From contig CAWDTA010000002.1 of NCBI GenBank assembly GCA_963805085.1, positions 1,088,001 through 1,152,000 on the forward strand: a stretch of 64,000 bases of DNA. Reading direction: 5' to 3'. This document shows positions 12,326 to 60,258 of the stretch, in pieces. The translations under genes were made by a program, and so were the position numbers. Positions within the stretch are counted from its first letter, which is position 1. Every line of letters starts with the position of its first letter. The notes beneath the pieces were generated by a model. That model ran no database searches. It was not told the DNA's origin and saw only the letters and a program-made list of their open reading frames with translations. The DNA is from an uncultured Veillonellaceae bacterium. Its GTDB lineage: Bacteria; Bacillota; Negativicutes; JARBTT01.

Positions 12326-12349
12326 TATGATACAAAGGGAGACTTTTAT

Positions 12350-13243: not shown

Positions 13244-13286
13244 GATTATCGACAGTTTTTATAATCATTTATCGAGGAGGCGTAAC

Positions 13287-14612: not shown

Positions 14613-14654
14613 TTAAAATGGAATGAAACGAAAAATCTAAAAGGGTGGATAATT

Positions 14655-19291: not shown

Positions 19292-21646
19292 ATGAAAGGG
19301 GATAACAAAAGGATGGTTACATACGTTTTTCCGGGACAAGGATCTCAAACGAAAGGAATGGGTAATGGCTTATTTGATGAATTTGAAGAACTCACATTAC
19401 AGGCAGATGGTGTTTTGGGATATTCGATTAAGGAACTTTGCTTGGAAGACCCGAATCAAACAATTGGGATGACTCAGTATACTCAACCGGCTTTGTATGT
19501 TGTAAATGCATTGAGTTATTTACAAAAAGTGAATAATACCGGGGAAAAACCAGATTTCGTTGCTGGACATAGTTTAGGAGAGTATAATGCATTATTTGCG
19601 GCAGGCGCATTTGATTTTGCTACAGGATTAAAATTAGTACAAAAACGAGGAGAATTGATGAGCCATGCGATTGGCGGTGGAATGGCTGCCGTCATTGGAT
19701 TAACAGCAGAGCAAGTGGCTGATGCTCTGATAAGTAATGGCTTGGGAAATATAGATATCGCAAACTATAATTCTCCCACACAAATTGTTATTTCAGGCAA
19801 AAGAACCGATATTGAAAATGCACAGCCTATATTTGAAAGAGTTAAAGGCGTGAAAATGTATGTTATTCTAAAAACTAGTGGGGCATTTCATTCACGATAT
19901 ATGGAACAATCAAGAAAAGAATTCGAAGGTTTCATAAGTAACTTCCAATTCTCCGAATTAATGATTCCTGTAATCTCGAATTTTACCGCAAGGCCATATA
20001 AACAATCAGAAATTAGACAGAATTTAATTCAGCAAATCACCCATCCAGTTAAGTGGACAGAAAGCATTAGATATTTAATGGGATTAGGAGAAATGGATTT
20101 TGAGGAAATAGGTCCGGGAAAAGTTTTAAGTGGATTGGCTCGACGCATAGAAAATGAAGCAGAGCCTTTAATCGTTAGTCAAGATGAGCAGAGTATAGAT
20201 ACTCTAGTAAAAACCGCAGAAGAACATAACGTAGTACCTATTAAAAGTCATAAAACTGTAGCAAAAGAAGCGATTAGGGCAGAACAAAAGCTGATGTTAT
20301 CAGCTTCTTCATTAGGGAGTTTAGAGTTTAAAAAGGATTATGGCCTTAAATACGCTTATCTAACAGGTGGAATGTATCGAGGGGTTGCCTCGATAGACAT
20401 GGTAGTTAAAATGGGAAAGGCTGGTATGATGGGGTATCTTGGAACAGGTGGTTTACAGTTACCTGAAATTGAACAAGCAATTGAAAGCATTCAGCAGGGA
20501 CTATCCGCGGGTGAATCATATGGCATAAATTTATTACATAATCCGAATAATCCCGAAAAAGAAGAGCAAACTGTTGATATTTTTCTGAAACGTGGAGTTA
20601 AAAAAATTGAAGCTGCAGCCTTTTTGAATGTGACTCCAGCATTAGTTAAATATCGTGCCAAAGGCTTAAAATGCAATTTACAGGGAGAAATTTTAGTGCC
20701 CCAAAAAGTTATGGTCAAGGTCTCTCGTCCGGAAGTGGCGGCAGAATTCTTAACTCCGGCGCCGGAACGGATTGTGTCGAAATTGCTTGAGGACAATAAA
20801 ATTACAAAAGAAGAAGCAGAACTGTTAAAGAAAATTCCTATGGCCGATTATATTTGCGTTGAAGCTGATTCAGGCGGTCATACTGATGGCGGAGTGGCTT
20901 ATACATTAATGCCGGCTATGATTAAATTGCGCGATGAAATGATGAAAAAACATCAATACATTAAGAAAGTTGGAATTGGATCTGCAGGTGGGATTGGGAC
21001 ACCTGCAGCTGCAGCTGCAGCATTTATCTTAGGTGCAGATTTTATTCTGACAGGTTCAATTAACCAATGTACGGTAGAAGCGGCTACCAGCGATAATGTT
21101 AAGAATCTATTGCAACAAATGAATGTTCAAGACACTGAATATGTGCCTGCTGGAGATATGTTTGAAATCGGCGCTAAAGTGCAAGTGCTGAAAAAAGGAT
21201 TATTCTTTCCAGGGAGAGCAAATAAATTATATGAATTGTATCGGAAATATAATTCTCTAGATGAAATAGATGAGAAAACTAAGAAACAAATTCAGGAAAA
21301 ATATTTCAATAGAAGTTTTAAAGAAGTATATGAGGATGTTAAAAAGTATTATCCTCCTCAAGAAATCGAAAAGGCGGAGCGTAACCCAAAACATAAAATG
21401 GCGCTGATTTTTAGATGGTATTTTGGCTATAGTAGTCAACTTGCGTTAAAAGGAGATGAAAAAGGTAAAGTCGATTATCAAATTCACTGCGGGCCGGCAT
21501 TAGGCGCATTTAATCAATGGATTAAGGAAACACCTTTGGAAAATTGGCAGAATAGGCATGTTGATGGAATTGCGGAAAAAATAATGGCGGAAGCAGCAGT
21601 TTTATTAAATCAACGTTATAATACGTTGATGAAGAATTGTATTTAA
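19292..21646 (+). CDS. pksE: Trans-acting malonyl acyltransferase fused to a PfaD-type FMN enoyl reductase (PksE/BaeE-like); likely start 19313
   Basis: AT: FPGQGSQ, GHSLG, SGAFHS (malonyl type). ER: [38 protein letters not shown]. Confidence 0.9.
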
Positions 21647-35052: not shown

Positions 35053-38000
35053 GAGGGAATATGAAAGATGAAAGATATTGTCAAGTACATTTTTCATGAG
35101 GTACAGAGTAGGCGATTACCGAAAACGGATGCAATAGATTTGATAAGTCAACTTCAAACTCAGATTATTTCTGATCGATCTTGTTTCCTTCACCCTCTGC
35201 TCCAGCAAAACACTTCTGATTTTTCTGAGCAAAGATTCAGTTCCACATTTACCGGGCAGGAATTTTTTCTGGCAGATCATATCGTGAAGGGACAGCGGGT
35301 TTTACCCGGGGTAGCCTATCTTGAAATGGCACGAGCAGCAGTACAGCAGGCAGCAGGCGCTCTGAAAGAGGGTAACAACCAACAAATTCAATTTAAAAAT
35401 ATTGTTTGGTCTAGACCTATTGTTATAGAAAAACATCCGGTTCAGGTAAATATTGGACTATATCCTGAAGATAATGGAGATATTGCCTATGAAATCTATA
35501 GCGGATCTGAAGATATCAATGCAGAGCCTATAGTATATAGCCGGGGCAGTGCCGTGCTCAGTTCGGGTTTTGAAATTCCAGTTTTAGATCTTAAGGCGTT
35601 ACAAACACAATGTAGTCAAAGCAGCCTTTCTTCTAGTGAGTGCTACGAAATCTATAGCGAAATGGGAATTGACTATGGTCCAGGACACCAGGGAATTGAG
35701 AAGGTGTACGTGGGCTTGGGCCAAGTGTTGGCAAAGCTATATTTACCTTCTGTTGTCTCCGAGACGCGAGATCAATTCATCCTGCATCCTAGCTTGATGG
35801 ATTCTGCCTTACAGGCATCAATTGGCTTAATAATGGGGTCTAGTACCCCATTATTATCCCTGCCTTTTGCGCTTCAGGAGCTTAAAGTCTTTAGTAAATG
35901 CACCTGTGCCATGTGGGCTTTGATTCGCTACAGCAACGGAAGTAAAGCTGGGGATAAAGTACAGAAACTTGATATTGACTTGTGTGATGAAATAGGGAAT
36001 ATTTGTGTACAGATGAAGGGTTTTTCATCGAGAGTTCTAGAAGGTGAAGTGGGATCGGTAGGCTCATCAGTGGCAGAGACAGTTGGAATGTTGAGACTTA
36101 CACCCTTGTGGAAACAACAAGATGCGCAAGGAGAGAACATGGCATCTGACTATGCCGATCATGTTGTGATACTTTGTGAACCAAAAAAAGAAATTCAGGA
36201 AAGCATTGAAACTGCAATGAAAGGAATACACTGCTTTACCTTGAAATCTGAGCACAGCGGTATAGACCAACGGTTTCAAACCTATGCAGTCCAAGTGTTT
36301 GAAAAAATCCAAAGCATTATCAAAGGAAAAACTACTGGTAAGGTGCTAGTTCAGATTGTAGTTTCTACAGAGAATGAACAACAACTATTCTTGGCATTTT
36401 CCGGGCTTCTAAAAACGGCGCAGCTTGAGAATAAAAATCTTATTGGACAGCTGATTGGTTTAGATGGATGGAAAGATTCTAAAGGAATTATAGAAAAATT
36501 GACTGAAAATAGTCGAAGCAAAGCGACTCAGATCCAATATCAAAAAGGCAAACGACAGGTTATGACTTGGAGTGAAATAGGAGTATCAGACAAAGAAGTG
36601 AGTGTTCCTTGGAAAGACCAGGGTATCTATCTGATTACCGGCGGTGTCGGCGGTTTAGGGATCATTTTTGCCAGAGATATTGCACATAAAGTTAAGAATG
36701 CCACCATAATTTTGACAGGAAGATCTCCTCTGAGTGAGGAAAAACAAGAAAAACTTAAAGAATTAGAAAGTTTAGGTATCCGGACTGAATATAAGCAGGT
36801 TGATGTAATCCAAAAGAAGGCGGTTGCCGATTTAATTAAGGATATCCAAAAGAAATTTGGAAGTCTTAATGGCATCATTCATGCTGCAGGAGTAAATCGA
36901 GATAACTTTATTATCAAAAAGACTAAAGATGAACTATTAGAAGTATTGGCTCCGAAAGTTACTGGATTGGTGAATTTAGATCTGGCAAGCAAGGATCTAA
37001 GCCTTGACTTCTTCGTGCTCTTTTCTTCAATCGCAGGAAGCTTAGGAAATTTAGGTCAGATTGATTATTCTGCCGCTAACGCCTTTATGGATGCTTATGC
37101 GAAGTATCGTAACGATTTGGTGGTTGCAAATCAACGACAGGGTCAGACTTTGTCCATCAATTGGCCATTGTGGAAAGATGGTGGGATGCATGTAGACGAG
37201 GAAACAGAGAAGATGATGTTGCAGAATACGGGCATGATGGTCATGCAGGCTTCAACCGGCATAGGAGTATTATATGAAGGTTTAGCTTCTGGCAAAGATC
37301 AGATTATGATGGTAGAAGGTAAGCTAGAACGAATGAAGGAAAAATTGCTTTCTAATCAACAATCGAAAGCTCCAGTTGCAGCTGCTTCCTCAATGGAGAT
37401 TGATACAAGCAATATGTTGGATAAAGTGCAGGAAACTTTAATGCAAGCAGTATCTAATCTAATTAAGGTTAATATCGGGGATCTTGATGTAGATGCTGAA
37501 TTGAGTGAATATGGATTTGATTCAATAATGTTTACCGAATTTACCAATAAACTCAATCAGGAATATACGCTTGAATTGACACCAACCATATTTTTTGAAT
37601 ATCCTACGCTCTGTAGTTTTGCTAGATATTTGGTAGAACAACACCAAAATGTGCTTGCACCATATTTTATAGTACAAACCAAGGTGGAAGCTCCGATACA
37701 AACCATTGCTTCAATAGGGATTGATACAAGTAATATGTTGGATAAAGTGCAGGAAGCTTTAATGCAAGCAGTATCTAATTTAATTAAGGTTAATATCGGG
37801 GACCTTGATGTAGATGCTGAATTGAGTGAATATGGATTTGATTCAATAATGTTTACCGAATTTACCAATAAACTCAATCAGGAATATACGCTTGAATTGA
37901 CACCAACCATATTTTTTGAATATCCTACGCTCTGTAGTTTTGCTAGATATTTGGTAGAACAACACCAAGATGTGCTTGCACCACATTTTGTAGTACAAAC

Positions 38001-39960
38001 CAAGGTAGAAACTTCGATACAACCCATTGAAGATAAAAAGGAAGAAGTTTCATCTAATAAAAGACAACATTCCCGGTTTGTAAGAACGATGGCAGTATCC
38101 GCAGAAAAATCGATTGCAAACAATTCGGAACCTATTGCAATTGTAGGGATGAGTGGCATATTCCCTATGGCCAAAGATGTAAATGAACTTTGGACAAACC
38201 TTGTGGAAGGCAAAGATTGCATTACGGAAATTCCTAAGAGTCGTTGGGATTGGCAAGAGTATTATGGCGATCCTAAAAAAGAAGCCAATAAATCAAACGT
38301 TAAATGGGGAGGATTTATTGACGGCATAGATGAGTTTGATCCGTTATTTTTTGGAATTTCTCCTAGAGAAGCCGAGCTAATGGATCCTCAACAGCGGTTA
38401 CTAATGATTCATGCTTGGAAGGTTATTGAAGATGCTGGATATTCGGCGCAAAGCCTTTCAGGAACAAAAACAGGTATGTTCGTGGGAACCATGAGTACCG
38501 GTTACAATCAATTGATTGCCGAGGCAAATGTAGCCATCGAAGGGTATTCTTCTACAGGCATGGTTCCTTCGGTTGGACCAAATCGAATGAGCTATTTTCT
38601 CAATATTCATGGTCCTAGTGAACCGGTTGAAACGGCTTGCTCCAGCGCATTAGTTGCAATTCATCGGGCAGTAAGCGCCATAGAAAATGGAAGCTGCGAG
38701 ATGGCACTGGTTGGTGGTGTCAATACACTGGTAACACCAGAACTTCAGATCAGTTTCAACAAAGCAGGAATGCTATGTGAAGATGGACGATGCAAAACTT
38801 TTTCAAATAAAGCGAATGGTTATGTACGAGGCGAAGGTGCTGGGATGATTTTTCTGAAAAAGCTTAAAGATGCAGAACAAGCAGGAGATCATATTTATGG
38901 AGTGATTCGAGGCAGTGCTGAAAATCACGGAGGTCGTGCAAATTCCTTGACGGCGCCTAATCCAAAGGCGCAGGCAGAAGTGCTAAAAGCTGCTTATACT
39001 AAGGCGGGGATTGATCCGAGAACCGTTACTTACATTGAGGCGCATGGAACTGGTACGGAGCTGGGTGATCCGATTGAAATTAACGGGTTAAAAGCAGCCT
39101 TTAAAGACCTCTACCAAGCCACAGGAGATTCACAGGTCGTAAGTAGTCATTGCGGAGTGGGTTCGGTAAAAACCAATATTGGTCATTTAGAAATGGCTGC
39201 AGGAATTGCGGGTGTAATTAAAGTCCTATTGCAGCTTAAACATAAAACGCTGGTTAAAACCCTTCATTGCGATACGATTAATCCGTACATTCAGCTTAAA
39301 GACAGCCCATTCTATATAGTTCAGGAGACTAAGGAATGGAAAACCGTACAAGATGAGAGGGGCAACGATATTCCGCGGCGGGCTGGAGTGAGCTCGTTTG
39401 GATTTGGGGGCGCCAATGCTCACGTAATAATTGAGGAATATATTCCAAAGAATCAGGAACAACCTCAAGGCTCGCTTGCCAATGGTAATCCTGTAATTAT
39501 TGTATTATCGGCTAAAAATGAAGGGCAACTCAAAGAACAGGCGCGGCAATTATTGTCCGGAATACAGAAACAACAATTTTCAGATGCTAGTTTAGCGGAT
39601 GTGGCCTATACACTCCAAGTGGGACGTGAAGCAATGGAAGAACGCTTGGCCATAATTGTTGGATCTGTCAAAGAACTCGAAGAAAAATTAAAGGGTTTTA
39701 TAAACGGACAAAATGGTATTCCAGATTTATATGGTGGAGGGGTCAAACGAAATAAAGATACTATAGCTATTCTTGCAGCAGATGAAGATATGCCAAAGAT
39801 TATAGATGCTTGGATTGCCAAAGGGAAATTTAAGAAATTACTAGACATGTGGGTTAAGGGTTTAAACTTTGATTGGAATAAGTTGTATGGCGATATTAAA
39901 CCGAGTCGTTTGGGTCTCCCAACCTATCCTTTTGCTAAGGAGCACTATTGGGTTCCGAAA
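30100..39960 (+). repeat. Direct duplication (~5.1 kb period) of a DH-KR-ACP2-KS unit across PKS subunits 1 and 2
   Basis: Identical antisense shadow ORFs at 31536/36627 (offset 5091) and 34150/39226 (offset 5076); long identical DNA stretches in the KR and KS regions. Confidence 0.9.
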
Positions 39961-40884
39961 AACCGGAGTAAACTTGGTAGAAGTAATGCAGTTGCAACCA
40001 TTCATCCGCTGCTGCAACAAAATACATCAGATTTTTCTGCCTACCGATTTAGTTCTACATTTACGGGTCAGGAGTTTTTCCTAACCAATTATGAAGTAGA
40101 GAATCAACGGGTTCTATCAGAGGTGTCCTATCTTGAAATGGCACGAGCTGCAGTAAGTCAGGCAATGGGAGATTTACAATTAGGTGAGACTAAAATTTGG
40201 CTTAAAAATGTGGTTTGGTCTAAGCCTATCGTTGTAGTGGATCAGCCCATTCAGATACATATTGAACTCTACCCCGAAGAAGATGGCGATATCGCTTATG
40301 AAATCTATAGCAAGTCTGAAAAAAATGATGCAGAGCCTGTAATACATAGCCAGGGTATAGCAGTATTAGGTTCGTCCTCTGAAATTCGAGGCTTGAATAT
40401 TAGTGATTTACAAGCGCAGTGCAGCTATGGCAACCTTTCTTCCAGCCAGTGTTACGAAAGCTATAGCCAAATGGGAATTGACTATAGCTCTGGACAGCGG
40501 GGGATTGAGAAGGTGTATGTGGGTTCAGACAAAGTGTTGGCAAAGCTGTATTTACCTTCAGCTATCTTGGATACTCAAGACCAATTCGTTCTGCATCCTA
40601 GCTTAATGGATTCCGCCTTACAGGCATCAATTGGCTTAATGATGGGCTCTGATAACCCTAAATTGTCTGTACCTTTCGCACTTCAGGAACTTGAAATTTT
40701 TAGTAAATTAACTTCCGAAATGTGGGCTCTAATTCGTTACAGCAACGGAAGTGAAGCCAGAAATAAAGTACAGAAACTCACTATTGATTTGTGTGATGAA
40801 ACAGGGAATGTTTGTGTACAAATGAAGGGACTTTCAACAAGAATTCTAAAAAGTAAAGTGTATAACTATTCGAACATCAGTTAG
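35068..40884 (+). CDS. Trans-AT PKS subunit 2: docking helices-DH-KR-ACP-ACP-KS4-DH0 (inactive)
   Basis: DH motif DHIVKGQRVLPG; KR GGVGGLG; two GFDSI ACPs; KS ETACSS/HGTGT/GHLE. The terminal DH reads NYEVENQRVLSE, lacking the catalytic His and Pro. Confidence 0.95.
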   Translation: MKDIVKYIFHEVQSRRLPKTDAIDLISQLQTQIISDRSCFLHPLLQQNTSDFSEQRFSSTFTGQEFFLADHIVKGQRVLPGVAYLEMARAAVQQAAGALKEGNNQQIQFKNIVWSRPIVIEKHPVQVNIGLYPEDNGDIAYEIYSGSEDINAEPIVYSRGSAVLSSGFEIPVLDLKALQTQCSQSSLSSSECYEIYSEMGIDYGPGHQGIEKVYVGLGQVLAKLYLPSVVSETRDQFILHPSLMDSALQASIGLIMGSSTPLLSLPFALQELKVFSKCTCAMWALIRYSNGSKAGDKVQKLDIDLCDEIGNICVQMKGFSSRVLEGEVGSVGSSVAETVGMLRLTPLWKQQDAQGENMASDYADHVVILCEPKKEIQESIETAMKGIHCFTLKSEHSGIDQRFQTYAVQVFEKIQSIIKGKTTGKVLVQIVVSTENEQQLFLAFSGLLKTAQLENKNLIGQLIGLDGWKDSKGIIEKLTENSRSKATQIQYQKGKRQVMTWSEIGVSDKEVSVPWKDQGIYLITGGVGGLGIIFARDIAHKVKNATIILTGRSPLSEEKQEKLKELESLGIRTEYKQVDVIQKKAVADLIKDIQKKFGSLNGIIHAAGVNRDNFIIKKTKDELLEVLAPKVTGLVNLDLASKDLSLDFFVLFSSIAGSLGNLGQIDYSAANAFMDAYAKYRNDLVVANQRQGQTLSINWPLWKDGGMHVDEETEKMMLQNTGMMVMQASTGIGVLYEGLASGKDQIMMVEGKLERMKEKLLSNQQSKAPVAAASSMEIDTSNMLDKVQETLMQAVSNLIKVNIGDLDVDAELSEYGFDSIMFTEFTNKLNQEYTLELTPTIFFEYPTLCSFARYLVEQHQNVLAPYFIVQTKVEAPIQTIASIGIDTSNMLDKVQEALMQAVSNLIKVNIGDLDVDAELSEYGFDSIMFTEFTNKLNQEYTLELTPTIFFEYPTLCSFARYLVEQHQDVLAPHFVVQTKVETSIQPIEDKKEEVSSNKRQHSRFVRTMAVSAEKSIANNSEPIAIVGMSGIFPMAKDVNELWTNLVEGKDCITEIPKSRWDWQEYYGDPKKEANKSNVKWGGFIDGIDEFDPLFFGISPREAELMDPQQRLLMIHAWKVIEDAGYSAQSLSGTKTGMFVGTMSTGYNQLIAEANVAIEGYSSTGMVPSVGPNRMSYFLNIHGPSEPVETACSSALVAIHRAVSAIENGSCEMALVGGVNTLVTPELQISFNKAGMLCEDGRCKTFSNKANGYVRGEGAGMIFLKKLKDAEQAGDHIYGVIRGSAENHGGRANSLTAPNPKAQAEVLKAAYTKAGIDPRTVTYIEAHGTGTELGDPIEINGLKAAFKDLYQATGDSQVVSSHCGVGSVKTNIGHLEMAAGIAGVIKVLLQLKHKTLVKTLHCDTINPYIQLKDSPFYIVQETKEWKTVQDERGNDIPRRAGVSSFGFGGANAHVIIEEYIPKNQEQPQGSLANGNPVIIVLSAKNEGQLKEQARQLLSGIQKQQFSDASLADVAYTLQVGREAMEERLAIIVGSVKELEEKLKGFINGQNGIPDLYGGGVKRNKDTIAILAADEDMPKIIDAWIAKGKFKKLLDMWVKGLNFDWNKLYGDIKPSRLGLPTYPFAKEHYWVPKNRSKLGRSNAVATIHPLLQQNTSDFSAYRFSSTFTGQEFFLTNYEVENQRVLSEVSYLEMARAAVSQAMGDLQLGETKIWLKNVVWSKPIVVVDQPIQIHIELYPEEDGDIAYEIYSKSEKNDAEPVIHSQGIAVLGSSSEIRGLNISDLQAQCSYGNLSSSQCYESYSQMGIDYSSGQRGIEKVYVGSDKVLAKLYLPSAILDTQDQFVLHPSLMDSALQASIGLMMGSDNPKLSVPFALQELEIFSKLTSEMWALIRYSNGSEARNKVQKLTIDLCDETGNVCVQMKGLSTRILKSKVYNYSNIS

Positions 40885-41035: not shown

Positions 41036-44000
41036 ATGAATTCGAAAGAGAGTTTACTTGCACAGCAAGCGGAAAAAACAAGTTGCGATGGTAAAAAGGA
41101 TTCAATAGAAATAGAATCAGGGCAATCTCCAAAACCAGATTTTACTGAAGAAAACAAAGTAGTTTCAGCGGTAGGTTCACAGGCAAATATGGCATTCGTT
41201 TCGCAAGTGGATCAAGGTATACTTCTAGAAAAGACTATATATAAACTTAGAGGACTCTTTGCAGAAATTATTAAGTTACCTATTGACAGAATTGATGCTG
41301 ATGAGGCTTTGGAGGTATATGGAATTGACTCGATTATGATTATCGAGTTTAATAAAAAACTAGTTAATATTTTTGGAGAACTGTCAAAAACTTTGTTTTT
41401 TGAATATAGAACCTTAGAAACTTTTGCGGGATATCTCATTGCACACTATTCGCAAGATTGTGTGAAGTGGACTGGCCTAGTAGATCAGCAGCGAAAAAGA
41501 CCGGAAGTGGATTCAGCAGCAGTGCATTCTAATGAAGACCTTCCTGTGTTAACCTCATTGAAAGCAAGCAAGAAAGCAGGGCAAAACTTTACCGTTAAGA
41601 GACCAGATAAAAGAACCCAGGAACCTATTGCCATTATTGGCATGAGTGGACGTTATCCACAAGCAAAAGATTTAAATGAATATTGGAAAAATTTAAAGGA
41701 AGGCAAAGATTGTATTACAGAAATTCCGGAAGAACGCTGGTCATTAGAAGGTTTTTTCAATCCAGATGTTCAGGAAGCTATAGCACAAGGAAAAAGCTAT
41801 AGTAAATGGGGTGGCTTTGTAGACGGATTTGCAGATTTTGATGCTTTCTTTTTCAGTATCCCGCCTCGAGAAGCGATCAACATAGATCCTCAAGAACGGT
41901 GCTTTATTGAATCATGCTGGGAAGTGTTAGAGGATGCTGGATACACTAAGGAACTGCTTGAAAAACAGTATAATCGGCGGGTTGGTATTTTCGCAGGAAT
42001 CAACAGAACTGGTTTTGCCTTATATGGACCCGACCTATGGAAACAGGGCGAAAAAATTTTCCCCTATACTCAGTTTGGCTCGGTCGCTAACAGAGTTTCC
42101 TATTTGCTGAATCTACAGGGACCAAGTATGCCGATCGATACAATGTGTTCATCTTCATTAACTGCGATTCACGAAGCCTGCGAACATATTCATAATGGAG
42201 AATGTGAAATGGCGATTGCAGGTGGGGTAACCCTGTACCTTCATCCGTCTAATTACACTCAACTTTGTAGTTTGCAAATGCTGTCTGTAGATGGACAATG
42301 TAAGAGCTTTGGACAAGGTGGTAATGGATATGTACCTGGAGAAGGAGTAGGTACTGTTTTATTGAAGCGCTTATCCCAGGCTATCGCCGATAGGGATCAT
42401 ATTTACGCCGTAATTCGAGGTACTGGTATTAATCATGGTGGAAAAACCAATGGATATACGGTACCTAATCCGACAGCCCAAGGGGAACTTATTAGAACGG
42501 TATTGGATAAAGCAGGGGTAGATGCCCGAGCAGTCAGCTATATTGAAACTCATGGAACTGGGACGGCTCTTGGCGATCCTATTGAAATTACTGGGATTAC
42601 TCAAGCGTTTCTAAAGGATACGCAAAAAACACAGTTTTGCGCCATTGGCTCTGTAAAATCAAATATTGGACATTTGGAAGCTGCAGCGGGGATTGCAGGA
42701 GTTACTAAAATTGTATTGCAAATGAAGCATCAGAAAATTGTCCCAAGCTTACATTCAAAACAATTAAACCCCAATATTGATTTTACAAAAACGCCGGTTG
42801 TTGTTCAGCAAGAACTTGTGGATTGGAAACGGCCAATTATTGAAATAAACGGAGAAGTTAAGGCATATCCTAGAATTGCCGGTATCTCGTCCTTTGGTGC
42901 GGGTGGAGCAAACGCCCACGTGCTGATTGAAGAATATATTCCAGATGATCACGAAGATGCTCAAGGGATGATTAATAACTTGGATTTTGCAATTATTGTT
43001 TTATCAGCAAAAAATCGAGAACAACTCAAAAAACAAGTGCAGCAATTGTTAGCTGCTATCCAAGAACAACAATTTTCTGATAATAGCCTGGCTGATATGG
43101 CTTACACACTTCAAATAGGGCGCGAAGCAATGGAAGAACGTTTAGCTGTGGCTGTTAGATCAATCAAAGAACTTGAGGAAAAACTACAGGGCTTTCTCGA
43201 CGACCGGGATGGCATCCCCGATCTATATCAAGGACAGGTCAAACGTAATAAAGAGACATTGTCAATTTTTAAAACTGATAAAGAATTACAGGAAGCAATG
43301 GAAAAATGGATTGAACGCGGGAAATACAGTCAGCTTATGGAGCTCTGGGTCAAAGGATTAAACTTTGATTGGGACAAGTTGTACGGAGAGGATAAACCCC
43401 GCCGTATCAGTTTGCCGACTTATCCGTTTGCCAAGGAACGTTATTGGGTGCCAGAAGTAGTGAAAAAATCTAGTATTATAACAAAGGCTTCCGAGGGAGT
43501 AGTTCTTCATCCATTACTGCAACAGAATACCTCGAATTTTTCCGGTCAGCGTTATAGTTCTATTTTTTCGGGGCAGGAGTTTTTTCTGGCGGATCATATA
43601 GTAAACGGACAGCGCGTTTTGCCTGGGGTGGCCTATCTAGAGATGGCCAGGGCGGCAATTGAACAAGCAGAAGGTTTGGAAGCAGGTGAGAAAAGGATCG
43701 GGTTGAAAAATATTGCTTGGGCCAATCCTATTGTCGTTAATGGACAGTCAGTAAAGGTACATATTGGTCTCTATCCTAAGGAGAATGGAGAAATAGCTTA
43801 TGAAATCTATGTCGGAGAGGATAACGCGGAACCTGTTATATATAGTCAAGGAATTGCAGTGTTCAATCCGGCAACGGAAGTTCCAACCTTGGATTTGAAG
43901 AGTTTACAGGCGCAGTGCAGCAAAGGTGTGCTTAGTTCCAGTGAATGTTATGACACATTTAAGGCTGTAGGGATTGAATATGGTTCAGCTTACAAGGGTG

Positions 44001-47000
44001 TTGAAAAAGTGTATGTGGGAGCAGAGAAAGTATTGGCCAAACTGTCTTTACCTAATGTTGTAACTAATACTGGAGACCAATATGTCTTGCACCCAAGTTT
44101 AATGGATTCTGCCTTACAGGCATCAATTGGGCTTTTAGGCGGCAATAATTTCAAACCGGTTTTGCCTTTCAATCTTCAAAATATAGAAATTATTAGTAAA
44201 TGCACGACGGTCATGTGGGCTCTGATTAGCTACAGTGAGGACAAAGCTAAAGGGCAAAGCCTGGACATTGATTTAAGTGATGAAAACGGAACAGTGTGCG
44301 TCAGGATGAGGGGATATTTAACAAGGGGGCTGGAAAGTGAAAGTTTGTTGAATAATATTGGAACACTATTGTTCTCTCCACGTTGGCAAGCACAAGAAGT
44401 TACCCGGGAAGCTACAGCTCCGGACTATGCCCAGCATTTGGCAGTACTTTGTGAACCGGATAATACTCTCCAGAAAAGCGTTGAAAGGCAGATGGAGGAT
44501 GTTCACTGTATTACTTTGCAATCCGTAGAAGAAGATATTGATAAAAGGTTCCAAACCTATGCTATTCAAGTGGTTGAGAAAATTAAGGACATTCTTGCAG
44601 ATAAGCCTAAAGGTAAGGTACTGTTGCAAATTGTGGTCACTAGCCAAAATGAACAGCAAGTTTTCTCCGGACTTTCGGGGCTTTTGAAAACAGCTCGGCT
44701 GGAAAATCCAAAAATCATAGGGCAGCTGATTGAAGTGGAAGCGGGAGAAGGCGGCGACGGGGTTGTAGAAAAACTTAAGGAGAACAGCAGGAGTCCAATT
44801 GATAGTCATATTAGTTATCAGGACGGAGCAAGGTATATCTCACGTTTCAGTCAATTGGAAATTCCCCAGGAACAAGTGGTTATCCCCTGGAAGGAACAGG
44901 GCATATATTTGATTACTGGAGGGGCTGGTGGACTAGGTCTTATATTTGCCAAAGAGATTGCTCAGCATGCTAAGGGGGCCACTCTGATCATTACAGGACG
45001 GTCTGCTTTAAGTGAAAACAAACAAGCAAAATTGCGAGAATTACAGTCGCTAGGAGTTCGGATTGAATACCGGCGGATTGATGTGACAGATAAAGAAGCG
45101 GTGTCAGCGTTAATCTATAGCATTCGGAATGAGTTTAAAGGCCTAAATGGCATTATTCACGGTGCCGGACTGATTCGGGATAACTTTATCATTAAAAAGA
45201 CCAAGGAAGAAATGCAAGAAGTTTTATTACCAAAGGTTACTGGGCTGGTAAACCTAGATCAGGCAAGTAGAGAACTGCCGTTGGACTTTTTAATTCTCTT
45301 TTCTTCAGCCGCCGGGGCTTTGGGCAATCCGGGACAGGTAGACTATGCAGCGGCTAATGCCTTTCTAAATGCCTATGCTAAGTACCGAAATTCACTGGTA
45401 GCCTTAACACAACGATACGGACAAACCATAGCAATGAATTGGCCGCTGTGGAAGGAAGGCGGGATGCGTGTTGATCAAGAAACCGAGAAGCTGTTAAGTA
45501 GCGAAGGTATTATCACGCTGCGGACCTCAAGCGGTATTAAGGCTCTGTATCAAGGAATGGGTTCCGGTGAAGAACAAGTCGTAGTAATAGAAGGCGATAT
45601 ACGGAGGATACAGGAGAGATTCTTAAGTACGCCGACAAAAACTGAATCACATCCTCCTAAAATGACGGTTTCGGAAATTGATACCGGAATACTGCGAGAA
45701 AAAACCCTATATCAGCTTGAAATGCTATTATCTAAAGTAACCCAGATAGATGCTGGAAAATTAGATGACGATGAACCTTTAGAGACTTATGGGATTGATT
45801 CGATCATCATTACTCAGCTCAATCATGAGCTGGCCGGAACCTTTGGAGAGATATCCAAAACACTATTTTATGAATATCAGACTTTGGGCGCCTTGGTAGA
45901 ATATTTTATTGCCGAACATACACAGACATGCAGGCAATGGACTGGACTAGTAACTGAAGTCCAGGCAAAGCCAGAAATATCGAAGAAACCTTTAACGGAT
46001 GTAGGCACTGATAATAAGGTTCCCGTTTTGACATCATGGGAAAAAGGCAAGAAGCAAAAAAGAAACTACCTTTGTACAAATTTAGATTCCAAAAACTTCG
46101 AACCTATTGCCATTATTGGTATGAGTGGGCGTTATCCGCAGGCAAAAACTCTCCAAGACTACTGGACGAATTTGGAATCCGGTAAGAATTGTATTACAGA
46201 AATTCCCCAAGAGCGCTGGCCGTTGGAGGGATTCTTCCAATCCGATAAACAAGAAGCTGTGGACCAAGGCAAAAGTTACAGTAAATGGGGCGGGTTTATA
46301 GATAACTTTGCGGATTTTGATCCCTTGTTTTTTAATATTTCGCTAAAGGATGCAAGAAATATGGATCCTCAGGAACGCTTATTTGTTGAATCCTGCTGGG
46401 CAGTGTTTGAGGATGCAGGATATACTAAGGAACAGCTTGCCGTAAAGTATAATGACCGAATCGGTGTTTTTGCGGGAATTACAAAAACAGGCTTTGAGTT
46501 ATACGGTCCTGATTTATGGAAGCAGGGTGAAAAAATATTTCCTCATACTTCGTTCAGCTCAGTGGCTAATAGGGTTTCCTACCTGCTGAATTTACATGGA
46601 CCTAGTATGCCGATTGATACAATGTGCTCTTCCTCGTTAACAGCGATTCATGAGGCTTGTGAACATCTCTATCGTGGAGAATGTGAAATGGCGATTGCGG
46701 GCGGCGTTAATTTGTATCTACATCCATTGAGTTATATTGGACTTTGTGCACAGCAAATGCTGTCTATAGATGGACAGTGCAAGAGCTTTGGACGAGGCGG
46801 AAACGGATTTGTGCCTGGTGAAGGGGTAGGAGCTATACTGCTGAAACGTCTATCCCAGGCGATAGCTGATGAAGATCATATTTACGCCGTTATCCGGGCA
46901 ACCAGCATTAACCATGGTGGAAAGACGAATGGTTATACGGTTCCCAATCCTATAGCCCAAGGGGAGATTGTCCGGGCTGTGCTGGATAAAGCAGGGGTAA

Positions 47001-50000
47001 ATGCCCGCGCAATCAGCTATATAGAAGCTCACGGTACGGGAACAGAACTTGGCGATCCGATTGAAATTACGGGATTAAGCCAGGCATTTGCTAAGGATAC
47101 CCAAGATACCCAGTTTTGTGCCATTGGCTCAGCAAAATCGAATATAGGTCATTTGGAAGCTGCCGCTGGGATTGCAGGAGTTACCAAGATTGTACTGCAA
47201 ATGCAACACAAAAAAATTGTTCCAAGCCTGCATGCCAAAGAGCTAAATCCTAATATCAATTTTGCCAAGACACCATTTGTAGTTCAACAAGATCTTGCGG
47301 AATGGAAACGACCAATAGTTGAGAGCAACGGAGTAAGTAAGGAATATCCAAGAATAGCCGGTATATCAGCTTTTGGTGCCGGAGGATCAAATGCTCACGT
47401 AGTGATTGAAGAATATATCCCGCAGGATACGGAGCGGTCTAACATTCTGATTGGTGAGCAGAGTCCTGCCATTATCGTATTGTCAGCAAAGGATGAAGAC
47501 CGTCTTAAAGCTAAGGTACAACAATTGCTCTCTGCGATTCAAAAACAAAAATTAAGTGATAATGATCTTGCCAATATCGCGTATACACTTCAGGTAGGGC
47601 GTGAAGCAATGGCAGAGCGCTTGGCTTTATTCGCAGGATCTATGAAAGAACTGGAAGAAAAACTAAAGGCATTTATAGCTGGTAAGAGTGGAATTGAAAA
47701 TTTGTATCAAGGTCAGGTCAAACGTAATAAAGAAACGCTTAATCTTTTTGCTGCAGATGAAGATTTGCAACAAGTAATCGATATTTGGGCCAGTAAAGGA
47801 AAATATGCTAAACTTTTAGATCTTTGGGTCAAGGGGCTAGTTTTTGACTGGAACAAGATTTATGAGGATGTCAAGCCTCGTCGAATCAGCCTGCCTACAT
47901 ATCCATTCGCAAGGGAACACTTCTGGATACCTAAAATTACCGATGATTTCCAAGTAACGCCGAAAAATCGACAAGGAAATGAGAAACGCAGCGCCTTGAT
48001 GTATCAAGGTGATCGTGTACAAGCATCAGAACCTTTAAAAGGCAGGCTGATTGCTTCTCCGCTGAAAGAAATGCAATTTGAATATATTATGAGTACTGAG
48101 AACTTTACTGAGCTTAGAGATAACCATAATGTGCTGCATGTTGGATATTATCAGGAAATATTGTGCGATGCTGTTAAGGCTAGTTTCAATACTAGCTCAT
48201 ATGTACTACATAATATTGAGTTCTTAACAGCTTTGAGGTTTGATGAAGATTCTGCCCGAGTTGTGAATCTGATCTTAAGTCCTGAAGATGAAAATGGTTT
48301 TATGAAGTTTCAGGTAAGTAGTCGGAAAACCGGGAAGAATAAATGGACGCTGCATGTAAAAGGAAGCCTTAAGATTAATAGGGATATTCAAGTTGATAAA
48401 TTGCCGGTTGAGCAATATCTTAATATTACCAAGGATGGGGAACAGTACACAGCCGACGAGTTTTACCAAAAAATATTTGAACAAGGTTTTCGTTTAGGTG
48501 ATAGTGTAAAATGGGTGGATCATGTATGGCATAGAAAGGGAGAAATTCTTGCCCGTTTTAGACCTTTCACTGAAATGGAGAAGTGGTGCAATTACTCTAT
48601 TGGGATTCATCCTGGTGTGCTTGATGCATGCGCACAACTTTTTGTTTTCGCCGGTCAGGAATGCCTGCCATCAGGTACCATCTTTATGGTGGTAGAAATG
48701 AAAGAATTCAGCTTTCATTGTGCAGGCAACAGGGATAAAGCTGTATGGTGCCATTTTGTGCTGGATAAAGATGGCCAGGATGGCGATTGTATACAAGGAA
48801 ACTATACGCTTTATGATGAAGATGGACTTATTCTGGCACAGGCGAGAGGAAAAAAAGTAAAAAAATTAAATATAAAAGGCTTAAAAACTATAGATCTGAA
48901 TCGTAGTCAAGCCGAAAATTTTAAGAAATCCTTATTGTCTGATGCAAATGATGGAAAATCATGTATGCAAGCTGAAGTATTGGAAGACTCATTGCGGCAG
49001 ATAATGGCTGAACAATTAGGTATGTTGCCGGAACAACTTGATACCGGTGAGTCACTGAGAGATTTGGGAATGGATTCAATTGCCGCCATGAACTTTAGAA
49101 GTATGGTTGAGAAGTCCTTGGGCACAAAGATTTCCGCGGAAGACTTACTGGAAGGACCGTGTATTAAGGAATTGGCTGCTACTTTGAATTCTCAATGGCA
49201 AAAATTGGATAAGGATGGCGAAGAACAAGAAAAAACTGAAATTGTTAAGAGTGAAGAGCTGGAGGATTCTTTGCGGCAACTAATGGCCGAACAATTAGGT
49301 ATGTTGCCAGAACAGCTTGACACTGGCGAGCCGCTGAGAGATTTGGGAATGGATTCAATTGCCGCTATGAACTTTAGAAATATGGTTGAGAAGTCCTTAG
49401 GTATAAAGATATCCGCGGAAGACTTACTGGAAGGACCGTGTATTAAGGAGTTGGCTACGATAATACAGACTGAATTACAAAATTCTGATCTTAAGCCTAA
49501 AAAATTGGCAACCGTACAGGAGCAATCAAAAGGGGCAAGTATATGGTATGCGCATAGAATTATCAATAAAAATGCTAAATTTAGACTCTTTTGTTTACCA
49601 TATGGCGGCGGGGGAGCCTCATTATATCGTGAATGGCAAGGAAAACTGCCGGATTATATTGAAGTATGTCCTATTCAGATGCCAGGTAAAGAAAACAGAA
49701 TAAAGGAAGTTCCTATTGACAATATTGATGACGCAGTAAATACGCTGGAAAAAGCTATCAAAACTGAATTAGATATTCCTTATGCCTTTTATGGGCATAG
49801 CTTGGGAGTACTAATTGGCTACAGACTATCTTACCGTTTATGGCAAACGGCAAAAAATAAACCTAGCCACTTCTTTGTGGGAGGTTTTAGCCGACCTGAG
49901 GCTATTCCTAATTTTAATCTTGGAAAGAGGCTTGCTATGTTAAAATCTAGAGGTTTTGACAGTATTCCCACTGTAAGTGAAATCGAAGCGTTACCAGCTG

Positions 50001-50341
50001 AACAGCTTGACTTCTTGGTGCACCAAATAGGGGGCATGGAAAATGTCGTTGTAGAGGACGACATAGCTAGGAAACTGATAGCGGCCGCTCTTTGTGATTT
50101 GAGAATTTGTGAGAGCTTTAAGTTTAAAGAGGAGCCTCCATTTGACGTACCGATTACTGTTTTTCACGGCATAAAGGATGAGCGTGTTCCGGTAGAGAGT
50201 ATGGAGGCATGGAAATTGAATACTACATCAGCCTTTAAACTCCATGTGCTACCAGGAAATCATTTCTTCCTAAATAAAGAGCAGTATCAAGATGAATTGA
50301 TGGCCTTTATTAAAGAAGATATAGATCTGCATATATCCTAA
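41036..50341 (+). CDS. Trans-AT PKS subunit 3: ACP-KS5-DH-KR-ACP-KS6-atypical hotdog (PT/DH-like)-ACP-ACP-TE
   Basis: ACPs GIDSI (x2) and GMDSI (x2); KS DTMCSS/HGTGT/GHLE twice; DH DHIVNGQRVLPG; KR GGAGGLG with IRD; TE GHSLG (~49793) and GNHFF. Confidence 0.95.
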   Translation: MNSKESLLAQQAEKTSCDGKKDSIEIESGQSPKPDFTEENKVVSAVGSQANMAFVSQVDQGILLEKTIYKLRGLFAEIIKLPIDRIDADEALEVYGIDSIMIIEFNKKLVNIFGELSKTLFFEYRTLETFAGYLIAHYSQDCVKWTGLVDQQRKRPEVDSAAVHSNEDLPVLTSLKASKKAGQNFTVKRPDKRTQEPIAIIGMSGRYPQAKDLNEYWKNLKEGKDCITEIPEERWSLEGFFNPDVQEAIAQGKSYSKWGGFVDGFADFDAFFFSIPPREAINIDPQERCFIESCWEVLEDAGYTKELLEKQYNRRVGIFAGINRTGFALYGPDLWKQGEKIFPYTQFGSVANRVSYLLNLQGPSMPIDTMCSSSLTAIHEACEHIHNGECEMAIAGGVTLYLHPSNYTQLCSLQMLSVDGQCKSFGQGGNGYVPGEGVGTVLLKRLSQAIADRDHIYAVIRGTGINHGGKTNGYTVPNPTAQGELIRTVLDKAGVDARAVSYIETHGTGTALGDPIEITGITQAFLKDTQKTQFCAIGSVKSNIGHLEAAAGIAGVTKIVLQMKHQKIVPSLHSKQLNPNIDFTKTPVVVQQELVDWKRPIIEINGEVKAYPRIAGISSFGAGGANAHVLIEEYIPDDHEDAQGMINNLDFAIIVLSAKNREQLKKQVQQLLAAIQEQQFSDNSLADMAYTLQIGREAMEERLAVAVRSIKELEEKLQGFLDDRDGIPDLYQGQVKRNKETLSIFKTDKELQEAMEKWIERGKYSQLMELWVKGLNFDWDKLYGEDKPRRISLPTYPFAKERYWVPEVVKKSSIITKASEGVVLHPLLQQNTSNFSGQRYSSIFSGQEFFLADHIVNGQRVLPGVAYLEMARAAIEQAEGLEAGEKRIGLKNIAWANPIVVNGQSVKVHIGLYPKENGEIAYEIYVGEDNAEPVIYSQGIAVFNPATEVPTLDLKSLQAQCSKGVLSSSECYDTFKAVGIEYGSAYKGVEKVYVGAEKVLAKLSLPNVVTNTGDQYVLHPSLMDSALQASIGLLGGNNFKPVLPFNLQNIEIISKCTTVMWALISYSEDKAKGQSLDIDLSDENGTVCVRMRGYLTRGLESESLLNNIGTLLFSPRWQAQEVTREATAPDYAQHLAVLCEPDNTLQKSVERQMEDVHCITLQSVEEDIDKRFQTYAIQVVEKIKDILADKPKGKVLLQIVVTSQNEQQVFSGLSGLLKTARLENPKIIGQLIEVEAGEGGDGVVEKLKENSRSPIDSHISYQDGARYISRFSQLEIPQEQVVIPWKEQGIYLITGGAGGLGLIFAKEIAQHAKGATLIITGRSALSENKQAKLRELQSLGVRIEYRRIDVTDKEAVSALIYSIRNEFKGLNGIIHGAGLIRDNFIIKKTKEEMQEVLLPKVTGLVNLDQASRELPLDFLILFSSAAGALGNPGQVDYAAANAFLNAYAKYRNSLVALTQRYGQTIAMNWPLWKEGGMRVDQETEKLLSSEGIITLRTSSGIKALYQGMGSGEEQVVVIEGDIRRIQERFLSTPTKTESHPPKMTVSEIDTGILREKTLYQLEMLLSKVTQIDAGKLDDDEPLETYGIDSIIITQLNHELAGTFGEISKTLFYEYQTLGALVEYFIAEHTQTCRQWTGLVTEVQAKPEISKKPLTDVGTDNKVPVLTSWEKGKKQKRNYLCTNLDSKNFEPIAIIGMSGRYPQAKTLQDYWTNLESGKNCITEIPQERWPLEGFFQSDKQEAVDQGKSYSKWGGFIDNFADFDPLFFNISLKDARNMDPQERLFVESCWAVFEDAGYTKEQLAVKYNDRIGVFAGITKTGFELYGPDLWKQGEKIFPHTSFSSVANRVSYLLNLHGPSMPIDTMCSSSLTAIHEACEHLYRGECEMAIAGGVNLYLHPLSYIGLCAQQMLSIDGQCKSFGRGGNGFVPGEGVGAILLKRLSQAIADEDHIYAVIRATSINHGGKTNGYTVPNPIAQGEIVRAVLDKAGVNARAISYIEAHGTGTELGDPIEITGLSQAFAKDTQDTQFCAIGSAKSNIGHLEAAAGIAGVTKIVLQMQHKKIVPSLHAKELNPNINFAKTPFVVQQDLAEWKRPIVESNGVSKEYPRIAGISAFGAGGSNAHVVIEEYIPQDTERSNILIGEQSPAIIVLSAKDEDRLKAKVQQLLSAIQKQKLSDNDLANIAYTLQVGREAMAERLALFAGSMKELEEKLKAFIAGKSGIENLYQGQVKRNKETLNLFAADEDLQQVIDIWASKGKYAKLLDLWVKGLVFDWNKIYEDVKPRRISLPTYPFAREHFWIPKITDDFQVTPKNRQGNEKRSALMYQGDRVQASEPLKGRLIASPLKEMQFEYIMSTENFTELRDNHNVLHVGYYQEILCDAVKASFNTSSYVLHNIEFLTALRFDEDSARVVNLILSPEDENGFMKFQVSSRKTGKNKWTLHVKGSLKINRDIQVDKLPVEQYLNITKDGEQYTADEFYQKIFEQGFRLGDSVKWVDHVWHRKGEILARFRPFTEMEKWCNYSIGIHPGVLDACAQLFVFAGQECLPSGTIFMVVEMKEFSFHCAGNRDKAVWCHFVLDKDGQDGDCIQGNYTLYDEDGLILAQARGKKVKKLNIKGLKTIDLNRSQAENFKKSLLSDANDGKSCMQAEVLEDSLRQIMAEQLGMLPEQLDTGESLRDLGMDSIAAMNFRSMVEKSLGTKISAEDLLEGPCIKELAATLNSQWQKLDKDGEEQEKTEIVKSEELEDSLRQLMAEQLGMLPEQLDTGEPLRDLGMDSIAAMNFRNMVEKSLGIKISAEDLLEGPCIKELATIIQTELQNSDLKPKKLATVQEQSKGASIWYAHRIINKNAKFRLFCLPYGGGGASLYREWQGKLPDYIEVCPIQMPGKENRIKEVPIDNIDDAVNTLEKAIKTELDIPYAFYGHSLGVLIGYRLSYRLWQTAKNKPSHFFVGGFSRPEAIPNFNLGKRLAMLKSRGFDSIPTVSEIEALPAEQLDFLVHQIGGMENVVVEDDIARKLIAAALCDLRICESFKFKEEPPFDVPITVFHGIKDERVPVESMEAWKLNTTSAFKLHVLPGNHFFLNKEQYQDELMAFIKEDIDLHIS

Positions 50342-50811: not shown

Positions 50812-51612
50812 GTGCGCAGTTTTATGATGAACGTAAGTTTGGTATTAAGAAAAGAAATTTTAAATGGATGCAATACATTTACGGATTATTTCTCCATAAA
50901 ATTATCTGAAAAAAGCTACAAAGTTTCTTTGAATTTTTCTAAATTTAATAAGTTTGATGCAAGTTTAAACATAAAAAATCTTCTTCATGACGTTGAGCGT
51001 AAATATTTTGAGACTCTTAAATATAATCGAAGAATAAATAGTTTCCTTTTAGGAAGATATTCTGCTAAAAGAGCCATTACTGCATTAGTTGGTAATGAGA
51101 AAGATTTTACAAAAATTCTTATCAAAAAGGGAGTGTTTAATCAGCCAATTGTAGATTGTGAGACATCCAGTAATATACAGGTCAGTTTAAGCCATAGTGA
51201 TGACCTTGCAGCAGCAATAGCATTTAATGATATGCTGATTTTAGGAATTGATATTGAAAAAGCTAGTAGGCATATCAATCAAGAAGTGGAAGCAGTGTTA
51301 ACACAATGCGAAAGGGACCTTTCTTTTAAAGTTCCATGCTCATATAGAAATTTTCTGTTAATGATTTGGACAGTAAAGGAATCTCTTTCTAAGGTTCTTA
51401 AAACCGGGTTAACAGTACCTATGCGCATTTTAGAAGTAAGAAATATTGAAGAGCTTGAGGGATATTGCGTCAGCACTTTTACAAATTTTCCACAATATAG
51501 TACAGTGTCCTTTATAGTGGAAGATTATGTTTGCTCGATTACATTCCCAAAAAATGTTGAAATATATATAGACATTAATAGGATAAAGGATAATTTATAT
51601 AAGATTTTATAA
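50812..51612 (+). CDS. 4'-phosphopantetheinyl transferase (Sfp-type, trans-AT-cluster associated); likely start 50824
   Basis: SFLLGRYSAK, GVFNQP, SLSHS, LGIDIE, WTVKESLSK; RBS AGGAGG at 50807-50812. Confidence 0.88.
   Translation: MRSFMMNVSLVLRKEILNGCNTFTDYFSIKLSEKSYKVSLNFSKFNKFDASLNIKNLLHDVERKYFETLKYNRRINSFLLGRYSAKRAITALVGNEKDFTKILIKKGVFNQPIVDCETSSNIQVSLSHSDDLAAAIAFNDMLILGIDIEKASRHINQEVEAVLTQCERDLSFKVPCSYRNFLLMIWTVKESLSKVLKTGLTVPMRILEVRNIEELEGYCVSTFTNFPQYSTVSFIVEDYVCSITFPKNVEIYIDINRIKDNLYKIL

Positions 51613-56390: not shown

Positions 56391-60258
<3,868 letters not shown>

Follow-up and report, generated by a model that had tools for sequence, protein, structure and literature searches.

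A dehydratase-like domain proposed to close an aromatic ring at the end of a trans-acyltransferase polyketide synthase from an uncultured Veillonellaceae bacterium

A stretch of 64,000 nucleotides from an uncultured Veillonellaceae bacterium (contig CAWDTA010000002.1, positions 1,088,001 to 1,152,000; hereafter the window) carries a trans-acyltransferase (trans-AT) polyketide synthase (PKS) cluster, and the last module of its third PKS protein contains an atypical double-hotdog domain, termed here DH*, in the place of a dehydratase (DH). It is proposed, with moderate confidence from comparison of sequences, that DH* is a dehydratase-derived, product-template (PT)-like aldol cyclase/aromatase which would act on the full-length chain borne by the acyl carrier proteins (ACPs) of the last module, and that its product would probably be a 6-substituted salicylate. 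This reading draws on the placement of DH* in a clade of its own, its occurrence in chain-ending modules that lack a ketoreductase (KR), the carbonyls predicted at C3 and C7 of the chain, the legioliulin-type and putative apicularen members of the clade, and the phenol-tailoring enzymes encoded near related genes; it has a precedent in the PT of AviM, a DH-like bacterial C2-C7 aldol cyclase (PMC9135731). An earlier note, made from the letters of the window, had suggested a cyclase or PT domain, which appears to fit all the comparative evidence presented below. The idea as such is not new: a 'PT-like DH' was proposed by Niehs et al. (2020) for the terminal salicylate-forming modules of benzolactone trans-AT PKSs (PMC7318616).

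Anatomy and fold of the terminal domain

DH* occupies positions 48044-48898 of the forward strand, as delimited by Pfam, the match to the curacin DH CurJ, the structure model and fold searches. This segment corresponds to structured residues 12-296 of a 305-residue query (window 48011-48925), whose numbering is used for H39, H43 and D205 below, and to residues of about 2337-2621 of P0001, the translation of PKS3. In that translation the peptide after the sixth ketosynthase (KS6) reads EPLKGRLIASPLKEMQFEYIMSTENFTELRDNHNVLHVGYYQE, with IGIHPGVLDACAQ farther along; the peptides given in the earlier note were exact, but its start at 48030 was one base off, the open reading frame (ORF) being in frame at 48029 and 48032 while the frame begun at 48030 runs into stops. 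Pfam matched DH* to PS-DH (E 4.2e-13) and PKS_DH_N (E 2.8e-05), and no NCBIfam family was found for it.

In an alignment that also took in DH1-5 of the window and 38 related loci, motif 1 of DH* (DNHNVLHVGYYQE, D37 to E49, 48119-48157) is seen to replace the canonical HxxxGxxxxP with a version that is five residues shorter and has lost the Pro, as had been noticed before, and motif 2 (HPGVLDACAQ, H200 to Q209, 48608-48637) retains its Asp (D205, 48623-48625; D2530 of P0001) as well as its Gln. Two His fall within motif 1: H39 (48125-48127; H2364 of P0001), which aligns with the canonical catalytic His, and H43 (48137-48139; H2368 of P0001), the His of LHVG that is kept family-wide. In the model, H43 stands at the N-terminus of the central helix (residues 44-59), at or beside the position of the Pro of canonical DHs. 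The motif had rightly been called noncanonical, but the His conserved in the family is the second one (LHVG) and not that of DNH. Compared with a canonical DH, DH* has the double-hotdog fold and the Asp of motif 2, and lacks HxxxGxxxxP and a partner KR. The impression that it is unlike the five other DHs of the cluster is borne out by identities of 19-26% to DH1-5, which share 54-90% among themselves.

A model built by AlphaFold on an alignment of nine sequences (pLDDT 84.8) gave the DHs of CurJ, CurF and CurK as top Foldseek matches (CurJ, E 1.5e-23); by sequence, the CurJ DH (3kg8) was matched at E 4.1e-24, and comparison of the model with it by VIA gave Z 30.2 over 282 aligned residues, with a root-mean-square deviation of 2.8. 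The curacin DHs of CurJ, CurK and CurF (3kg8, 3kg9 and 3kg6), the best matches of DH*, share with it LGxSxxW and HPxLxD(A/S)CxQ. Unlike DH*, they act together with a KR and have the H-x8-P loop in full; DH* is missing five loop residues and the Pro, has gained the LHVG His, and is never found in a KR-containing module. VIA also returned the sorangicin pyran synthase (PS; 6b2v) at Z 26.7, the PT of PksA (5kbz) at 26.4, AmbC at 25.9, the branching (B) domain of RhiE (8oii) at 25.0 and PksEI (4u3v) at 24.5. Since all PKS hotdog families score alike in such model-based comparison, the fold cannot assign the function of DH*; it is closer to that of DHs than to that of the fungal PT (30.2 against 26.4).

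The shared fold, with Z values (26.7, 25.9, 25.0 and 24.5) not far under the 30.2 of CurJ, could be taken to favour an enoyl isomerase, that is a double-bond shifter, or a PS- or B-type hotdog, and a shift of, or rotation about, the C4=C5 double bond predicted below would aid ring closure. Such functions are nonetheless the least probable of the alternatives weighed here. A profile of the DH* family found the CurJ DH at E 2.4e-36 and AmbC at E 0.0035, and among the 37 matches listed at E <= 10 no name was recognised as the 4u3v isomerase, the sorangicin PS or RhiE. DH* keeps its Asp, which enoyl isomerases generally lack. Oxa-Michael addition would need a free hydroxyl, and none is left by any upstream module, the ground on which a PS had already been thought less likely in the earlier note, and the tie to chain-ending modules would not be expected for any of these functions.

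The PT of AviM, described by Feng et al. (2022) as the first characterised bacterial product-template domain, is a DH-like C2-C7 aldol cyclase with a His as base and a structure resembling that of the CurF DH (PMC9135731). Like DH*, it is a DH-like double hotdog structurally closest to the curacin DHs; unlike DH*, it belongs to an iterative KS-AT-PT-ACP enzyme, acts on a poly-beta-ketone and has its catalytic His placed as in DHs (PMC9135731), whereas the window DH* sits in a modular terminal module with a thioesterase (TE). Fungal PTs, such as that of PksA (3hrq/5kbz), share the double-hotdog fold and perform on an ACP the regiospecific aldol cyclisation and aromatisation which is only proposed for DH*; the PksA PT is described as larger, with extra helices (PMC9135731). 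Neither PksA nor AviM was named among the 37 profile matches listed, nor AviM among the 50 VIA matches listed, its presence in the libraries searched in either way being unchecked.

A clade tied to chain-ending modules

A FastTree tree was built from 189 non-redundant DH-like domain rows, with SH-like supports only and with the PDB reference sequences (CurJ, PksA PT, enoyl isomerase, PS and B domain) left out. In this tree, all 109 DH*-type rows and the terminal domain of Chondromyces apiculatus formed a single clade of 110 tips (SH-like 98) that contained no canonical DH. Clustering with ordinary inactive DHs (DH0) or with B domains, the outcome that the earlier note had looked out for, was not seen in this tree, which holds no B, PS or enoyl isomerase references. 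The second His (H43) is present in 109 of the 110 members and the Asp of motif 2 in 99, and the His aligned with the canonical one (H39) is found in only 65 of 109, having been lost in 44. A separate count over 185 proteins gave 93 domains with the short loop, of which 90 carry the second His and 45 the first. Both motifs recur, beyond what chance would give, in relatives of only 23-41% overall identity.

In a library of 50%-identity representatives, 195 proteins matched DH* at E <= 1e-30. Relatives were found in Pelosinus baikalensis, Desulfobacterales, Paenibacillus, Vallitalea, Myxococcus, Archangium and Corallococcus, in Thiotrichaceae, Kiritimatiellae, Bryobacteraceae and Legionella saoudiensis, and in Nocardia, Amycolatopsis, Streptomyces, Micromonospora and others. 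Two motif scans of genome contigs used narrow patterns, the first keeping 38 loci and the second the best 80 of 141 relatives; Gynuella, Pseudomonas, Chromobacterium, Burkholderia and (Allo)rhizobium were in neither list, an absence that means little with patterns of this kind.

Between the window and P. baikalensis, DH* is 73% identical, compared with 59% for DH5, 72% for KR5 and 65% for the TE, so that its conservation exceeds that of the active DH5 and is on a par with that of KR5 and the TE. This high identity, together with the clade and the conserved motifs, marks DH* as a maintained family and not a decayed DH, as judged by sequence comparison. A decayed DH is present elsewhere in the cluster: DH4, at the end of PKS2 (40003-40851; Pfam and alignments), has a degenerate motif (NYEVENQRVLSE) with Tyr for His and Ser for Pro, is probably inactive on that account, and sits in a module whose KR is gone, at the split between PKS2 and PKS3. 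With one such domain at hand, a broken HxxxGxxxxP and no KR in module 6, DH* might be regarded as a DH0 remnant that spaces KS6 from the ACPs, any ring being formed spontaneously or on the TE. This is very unlikely: the altered motifs persist across many phyla at overall identities of 23-41%, DH* is better conserved than the active DH5, and the domain has been retained in stand-alone terminal modules of about 1500 residues. By contrast, the truly dispensable DH4 has no counterpart in the Pelosinus homologue, whose module 4 shows no DH: Pfam marks three PS-DH stretches there, and a map by BLAST and hidden Markov model (HMM) has none between its first two KSs. A joint transfer of KS6 and DH* as one unit was also considered and rejected, KS6 being 79% identical to KS5 and only 37-43% identical to the KSs of stand-alone DH* modules.

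In module 6 of the window, DH* follows KS6 (46100-47245; Pfam, motif scan), in which the Cys (DTMCSSS), HGTGT and NIGH are all intact and which is, on these motifs, an elongating KS. It precedes tandem ACPs (residues 2652-2717 and 2738-2821; 48989-49498) and a TE (PF00975, residues 2850-3094; 49583-50317), all on the forward strand. The last module has no KR, as previously stated, the only KR of PKS3 in Pfam (residues 1289-1474) being that of module 5. A KR between KS and DH* was likewise found in none of 90 short-loop domains. Downstream of DH*, these had an ACP and a TE (66), a TE (7), a reductase (4, one with an ACP match), an ACP only (2) or an ACP and then the KR of a further module (1), and 10 were cut off; 77 of the 80 that were not cut off thus directly precede a TE or a reductase. 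Pfam analysis of 16 loci agreed with the KR-less terminal context in the 14 of DH* type, the other two being ordinary DHs with a KR. Eleven of the 14 are stand-alone proteins of about 1300-1750 residues, arranged KS-(AT or AT remnant)-DH*-ACP followed by a TE or a reductase (R), one is longer (M. xanthus, KR-KS-DH*-ACP-TE) and two are incomplete. Five proteins of about 1715-1745 residues (P0007, P0009, P0010, P0011 and L013) were seen to end as KS-AT-DH*-ACP-R, with a thioester reductase instead of a TE; by analogy with the NOCAP aglycone described in the NOCAP preprint, such modules are predicted to give salicyl- or resorcyl-aldehydes.

Counting back from the last module (n), all 14 multi-module cases lack a KR at n-2, with domains mapped in the window, P0005, P0051, P0061, P0065, P0068, P0098, P0191 and L. 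saoudiensis and assigned by BLAST only in P0012, P0014, P0076, P0189 and C. apiculatus; P0098/P0191 and P0061/P0189 are near copies. The n-1 module is reducing in the window and in the Pelosinus, myxobacterial, Vallitalea, Legionella and Chondromyces lines, and non-reducing in P0065, P0068 and P0098. In the window, module 4 (n-2; KS4 at 38128-39270, Pfam) lacks a KR and its DH is dead, module 5 (n-1; 41624-45457; Pfam, alignments) comprises KS5, a canonical DH5 (residues 825-1104) and KR5 (residues 1289-1474), and module 6 has no KR; these too lie on the forward strand. Such a pattern would leave carbonyls at C3 and C7, with C5 either deoxygenated or oxygenated, and carbonyls at these two positions are what C2-C7 aldol closure to a salicylate or resorcylate requires. 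In P0004, a metagenomic relative whose DH* is 81% identical to that of the window, n-1 is without a KR (no PF08659; KS-DH-KS-DH*-ACP-ACP-TE by BLAST), so that the reduction state at C5 would vary even between near relatives.

At four of nine related loci, neighbouring genes specify tailoring enzymes of phenol type. The neighbours at the nine loci include O-methyltransferases in two, flavin adenine dinucleotide (FAD) aromatic-ring hydroxylases in two, with a SnoaL-like protein, a multicopper oxidase and a sulfotransferase each occurring once, and five of the loci have upstream PKS segments of KS and ACP only, without KR or DH. By their predicted functions, these neighbour genes fit phenolic products. 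In one Desulfobacterales metagenome-assembled genome (L011, 8053-12658), three successive B12-binding radical S-adenosylmethionine (SAM) enzymes are encoded directly downstream of a KS-AT-DH*-ACP-TE gene and an O-methyltransferase upstream of it, which suggests a C-methylated phenolic product.

Aromatic relatives, the proposed ring closure and a residual dehydratase

Two published lines of work bear on the kind of product expected. Legioliulin is described as an isocoumarin made by a trans-AT PKS from a cinnamic acid primer (PMC5126622), and the salicylate of lobatamide was attributed by Ueoka et al. (2020) to the terminal four modules of its PKS, with similar series in the psymberin and legioliulin PKSs (PMC7586987). 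A locus of L. saoudiensis (L129/L130; G041:C9:243000-282000) holds a complete trans-AT line and encodes a free AT, a 558-residue aromatic amino-acid lyase, an amino-acid permease, a FadL-like porin and five KS modules arranged as AL-ACP-KS-DH-KR-ACP-KS-ACP-KS-ACP-KS-KR-ACP / KS-DH*-ACP-TE. By its architecture, this cluster fits a cinnamate-primed, legioliulin-type product. Its terminal KS-DH*-ACP-TE resembles that of the window in clade, short loop, second His and HPGILDACIQ, and the line has the same carbonyl pattern at n-2 and n. Unlike the window DH*, to which it is 27% identical, its DH* has the first His replaced (DSFSVLHSG), and the line differs in an n-1 module with a KR only and in a cinnamate-like starter with AL-ACP loading and an aromatic lyase.

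An apicularen-type cluster was reported in C. apiculatus through the terminal 'PT-like DH' of necroxime (Niehs et al. 2020; PMC7318616). In a whole-genome profile search, C. apiculatus DSM 436 proved to have 20 DH-like domains, and one giant trans-AT line ends as KS-ACP / KS-KR-ACP / KS-DHlike-(ACP)-TE. The terminal domain of this line has a short loop (NFHIGFYIE) with the H-I-G-F-Y-x-E shared by DH*, a second motif HPGFLDAVLQ and an identity of at most about 23% to the window DH*, and it falls inside the DH* clade beside Legionella-type rows, in a sub-clade of 17 (SH-like 96). The first motif-scan match in this genome (L071) was a canonical DH and was discarded; the DH*-like domain came from the profile search. 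As published, the 'PT-like DHs' of the necroxime, oximidine, lobatamide and apicularen lines are like DH* in lying in the last module before ACP-TE, in having non-canonical DH motifs and in being implicated in salicylate formation, the likeness to the necroxime domain being one of published description and not of sequence (PMC7318616). Unlike the benzolactone PKSs, the window line is a short six-KS polyene-type PKS from a relative of Pelosinus, and its n-1 module has a DH of its own. Literature searches aimed at a biochemical test of a PT-like DH, with most subscription journals outside their coverage, found none, and no work on Pelosinus trans-AT PKSs was among the matches listed.

From the anatomy, clade, conservation and context observed above, we infer the following chemistry, catalytic residues and product. 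Module 4 (KS4, dead DH4, no KR) would leave a ketone that becomes C7, module 5 (KS-DH-KR) would introduce the C4=C5 double bond, and module 6 (KS6, no KR) would leave the C3 ketone, to give an ACP-bound substrate ...C8=C9-C7(=O)-C6H2-C5H=C4H-C3(=O)-C2H2-C1(=O)-S. A base of DH* would then remove a proton from C2, which would attack C7; loss of water would follow, the C3 ketone would become the phenol, and the ring would stand as a 2-hydroxy-6-substituted benzoyl (salicyl) thioester, from which the TE would release a 6-substituted salicylic acid. For the base, the most likely residue on family-wide conservation is the LHVG His, H43, and its partner would be D205. If the starter is acetate, a C14 6-heptatrienyl-salicylic acid would be expected, and a trans-acting enoyl reductase (trans-ER) might reduce it in part.

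The most serious rival to a cyclase is a DH* that is still a dehydratase, removing a beta-hydroxyl made by a trans-acting reductase, such as the stand-alone short-chain dehydrogenase/reductase (SDR) encoded at 16500-17240 (Pfam, NCBIfam), or only a hydroxyl at C5 or C7, the aldol reaction being spontaneous or performed by the TE. It is considered unlikely on the whole, although it may hold in part, dehydration being one step of aromatisation. The claim that module 6 offers no hydroxyl for a DH to remove is likely, but it is not proven with that SDR nearby; the SDR, however, sits among exporter genes. The closest relatives of DH* by sequence and fold are the active DHs CurJ, CurK and CurF, and H39 and D205 are both retained in the window, yet 44 of 109 clade members have no H39, and the second His is missing from just one of 110. 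Some dehydration must occur in the lines of legioliulin type, Vallitalea type (P0051) and P0061, since their n-1 has a KR and DH* is the sole DH by Pfam, and C. apiculatus is alike (n-1 KR, no other DH) by BLAST and the DH*-family HMM only. In the window, by contrast, module 5 has a canonical DH of its own, and DH* is nevertheless 73% identical to its Pelosinus counterpart. A plain DH would, moreover, leave the strict tie to terminal KR-less modules unexplained.

Several points weigh against DH* as an aldol cyclase. It is nearest to working dehydratases in both sequence (CurJ, E 2.4e-36) and fold (Z 30.2), and with H39 and the Asp in place it could still dehydrate. All four KRs of the cluster carry the RDN Asp; an RDN Asp in a KR as a rule predicts an E double bond, here at C4=C5, and an E configuration would require rotation through enolisation before the ring could close. 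As an indicator of a Z double bond, the KR stereotype was set aside as uninformative, all four KRs being alike. The SDR and the trans-ER (19292-21646) could alter the chain predicted above. The placement of the C. apiculatus row is uncertain, given a branch as long as 2.52, and that the terminal domain of this species (C32 cluster) is the domain of the published apicularen PKS is something we infer.

A wider account, tentative and, taken as a whole, quite possible if short of probable, would have DH* represent a large family of predicted chain-ending aromatases, found in at least 195 clusters at 50% identity (E <= 1e-30). The family would have arisen from curacin-type dehydratases through a five-residue loop deletion, which would have shifted the catalytic His four residues toward the central helix, into the position held by Pro in canonical DHs. 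Its members would function in stand-alone KS-(AT remnant)-DH*-ACP-TE/R modules as well as in trans-AT lines, giving salicylate ends where n-1 reduces and resorcylate ends where it does not. On this account, the window cluster, in its anaerobic host related to Pelosinus, would make a 6-polyenyl- or 6-alkyl-salicylic acid unknown to date.

Cluster setting and meaning of the family

The PKS genes of the window show a module-borne AT in no module by Pfam, and AT activity is represented by a free AT (17728-18696) and by an AT fused to the PfaD-family enoyl reductase (19292-21646; Pfam, and NCBIfam TIGR02814 at 697.8 bits and TIGR00128 at 371.9 bits). PKS1 (22057-35052) reads KS1-(about 430 unassigned residues)-DH-KR-ACPx3-KS2-DH-KR-ACPx2-KS3 and PKS2 (35068-40884) DH-KR-ACPx2-KS4-DH4 by Pfam, and PKS3 (P0001, 3101 residues; 41036-50341; ORF, translation and Pfam) consists of the ACP of module 4 (about 41228-41425) followed by KS5-DH5-KR5-ACP-KS6-DH*-ACP-ACP-TE. 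A phosphopantetheinyl transferase (50812-51612; Pfam, NCBIfam) is encoded downstream of the PKS; all these features are on the forward strand. Modules 2-4 (28100-40884) are recent tandem duplicates (KS2-4 96-99% identical, DH2/DH3 90% identical) and module 1 has three near-identical ACPs; such repeats could have been mis-assembled or collapsed, the genome consisting of 5 contigs at 83% completeness. KS1 forms the extreme N-terminus of PKS1, with no loading domain or ACP seen ahead of it, and the stretch of about 430 residues that separates DH1 from the KS1 linker (residues 500-960; window 23557-24936) matched no Pfam family at 1e-6 and, in NCBIfam, had a weak linker-like match only. Nonribosomal peptide synthetase (NRPS), oxime and enamide domains were not found inside the PKS genes. 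Upstream (2-16413), the window holds the 3' portion of an NRPS (C-A-T-C-A-T-R type, with a thioester reductase at its end), a phosphopantetheinyl transferase, and two ABC export systems that come with a HlyD-type adaptor and a TolC-like protein of the outer membrane. Farther downstream, a 1067-residue ORF of collagen triple-helix repeats (56663-59866; Pfam E 8.8e-58) is overlapped by many long spurious ORFs on both strands.

As a concept, the PT-like DH dates from 2020 (PMC7318616), and the window DH* would be a further member of the kind proposed there. What is added here is the breadth of the family, including stand-alone modules derived from cis-AT lines and reductase-ended forms, the rule that the n-2 module has no KR, and a conserved His that differs from the textbook His. 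The signature [VIL]-x-H-[VIA]-G-[YHF]-[YF]-x-E together with HPG-x-x-D-x-C-x-Q provides a simple handle for genome mining, by which aromatic termini can be recognised in clusters where prediction tools would see just a 'DH without KR'. The building of benzene rings by modular, non-iterative bacterial PKSs is still argued from gene architecture alone, and both the six-KS line of the window, whose host is a non-pathogenic relative of Pelosinus, and the stand-alone DH* modules of about 1500 residues are small enough for in vitro rebuilding, where family-wide conservation would single out H43, rather than the textbook His, as the residue of interest.

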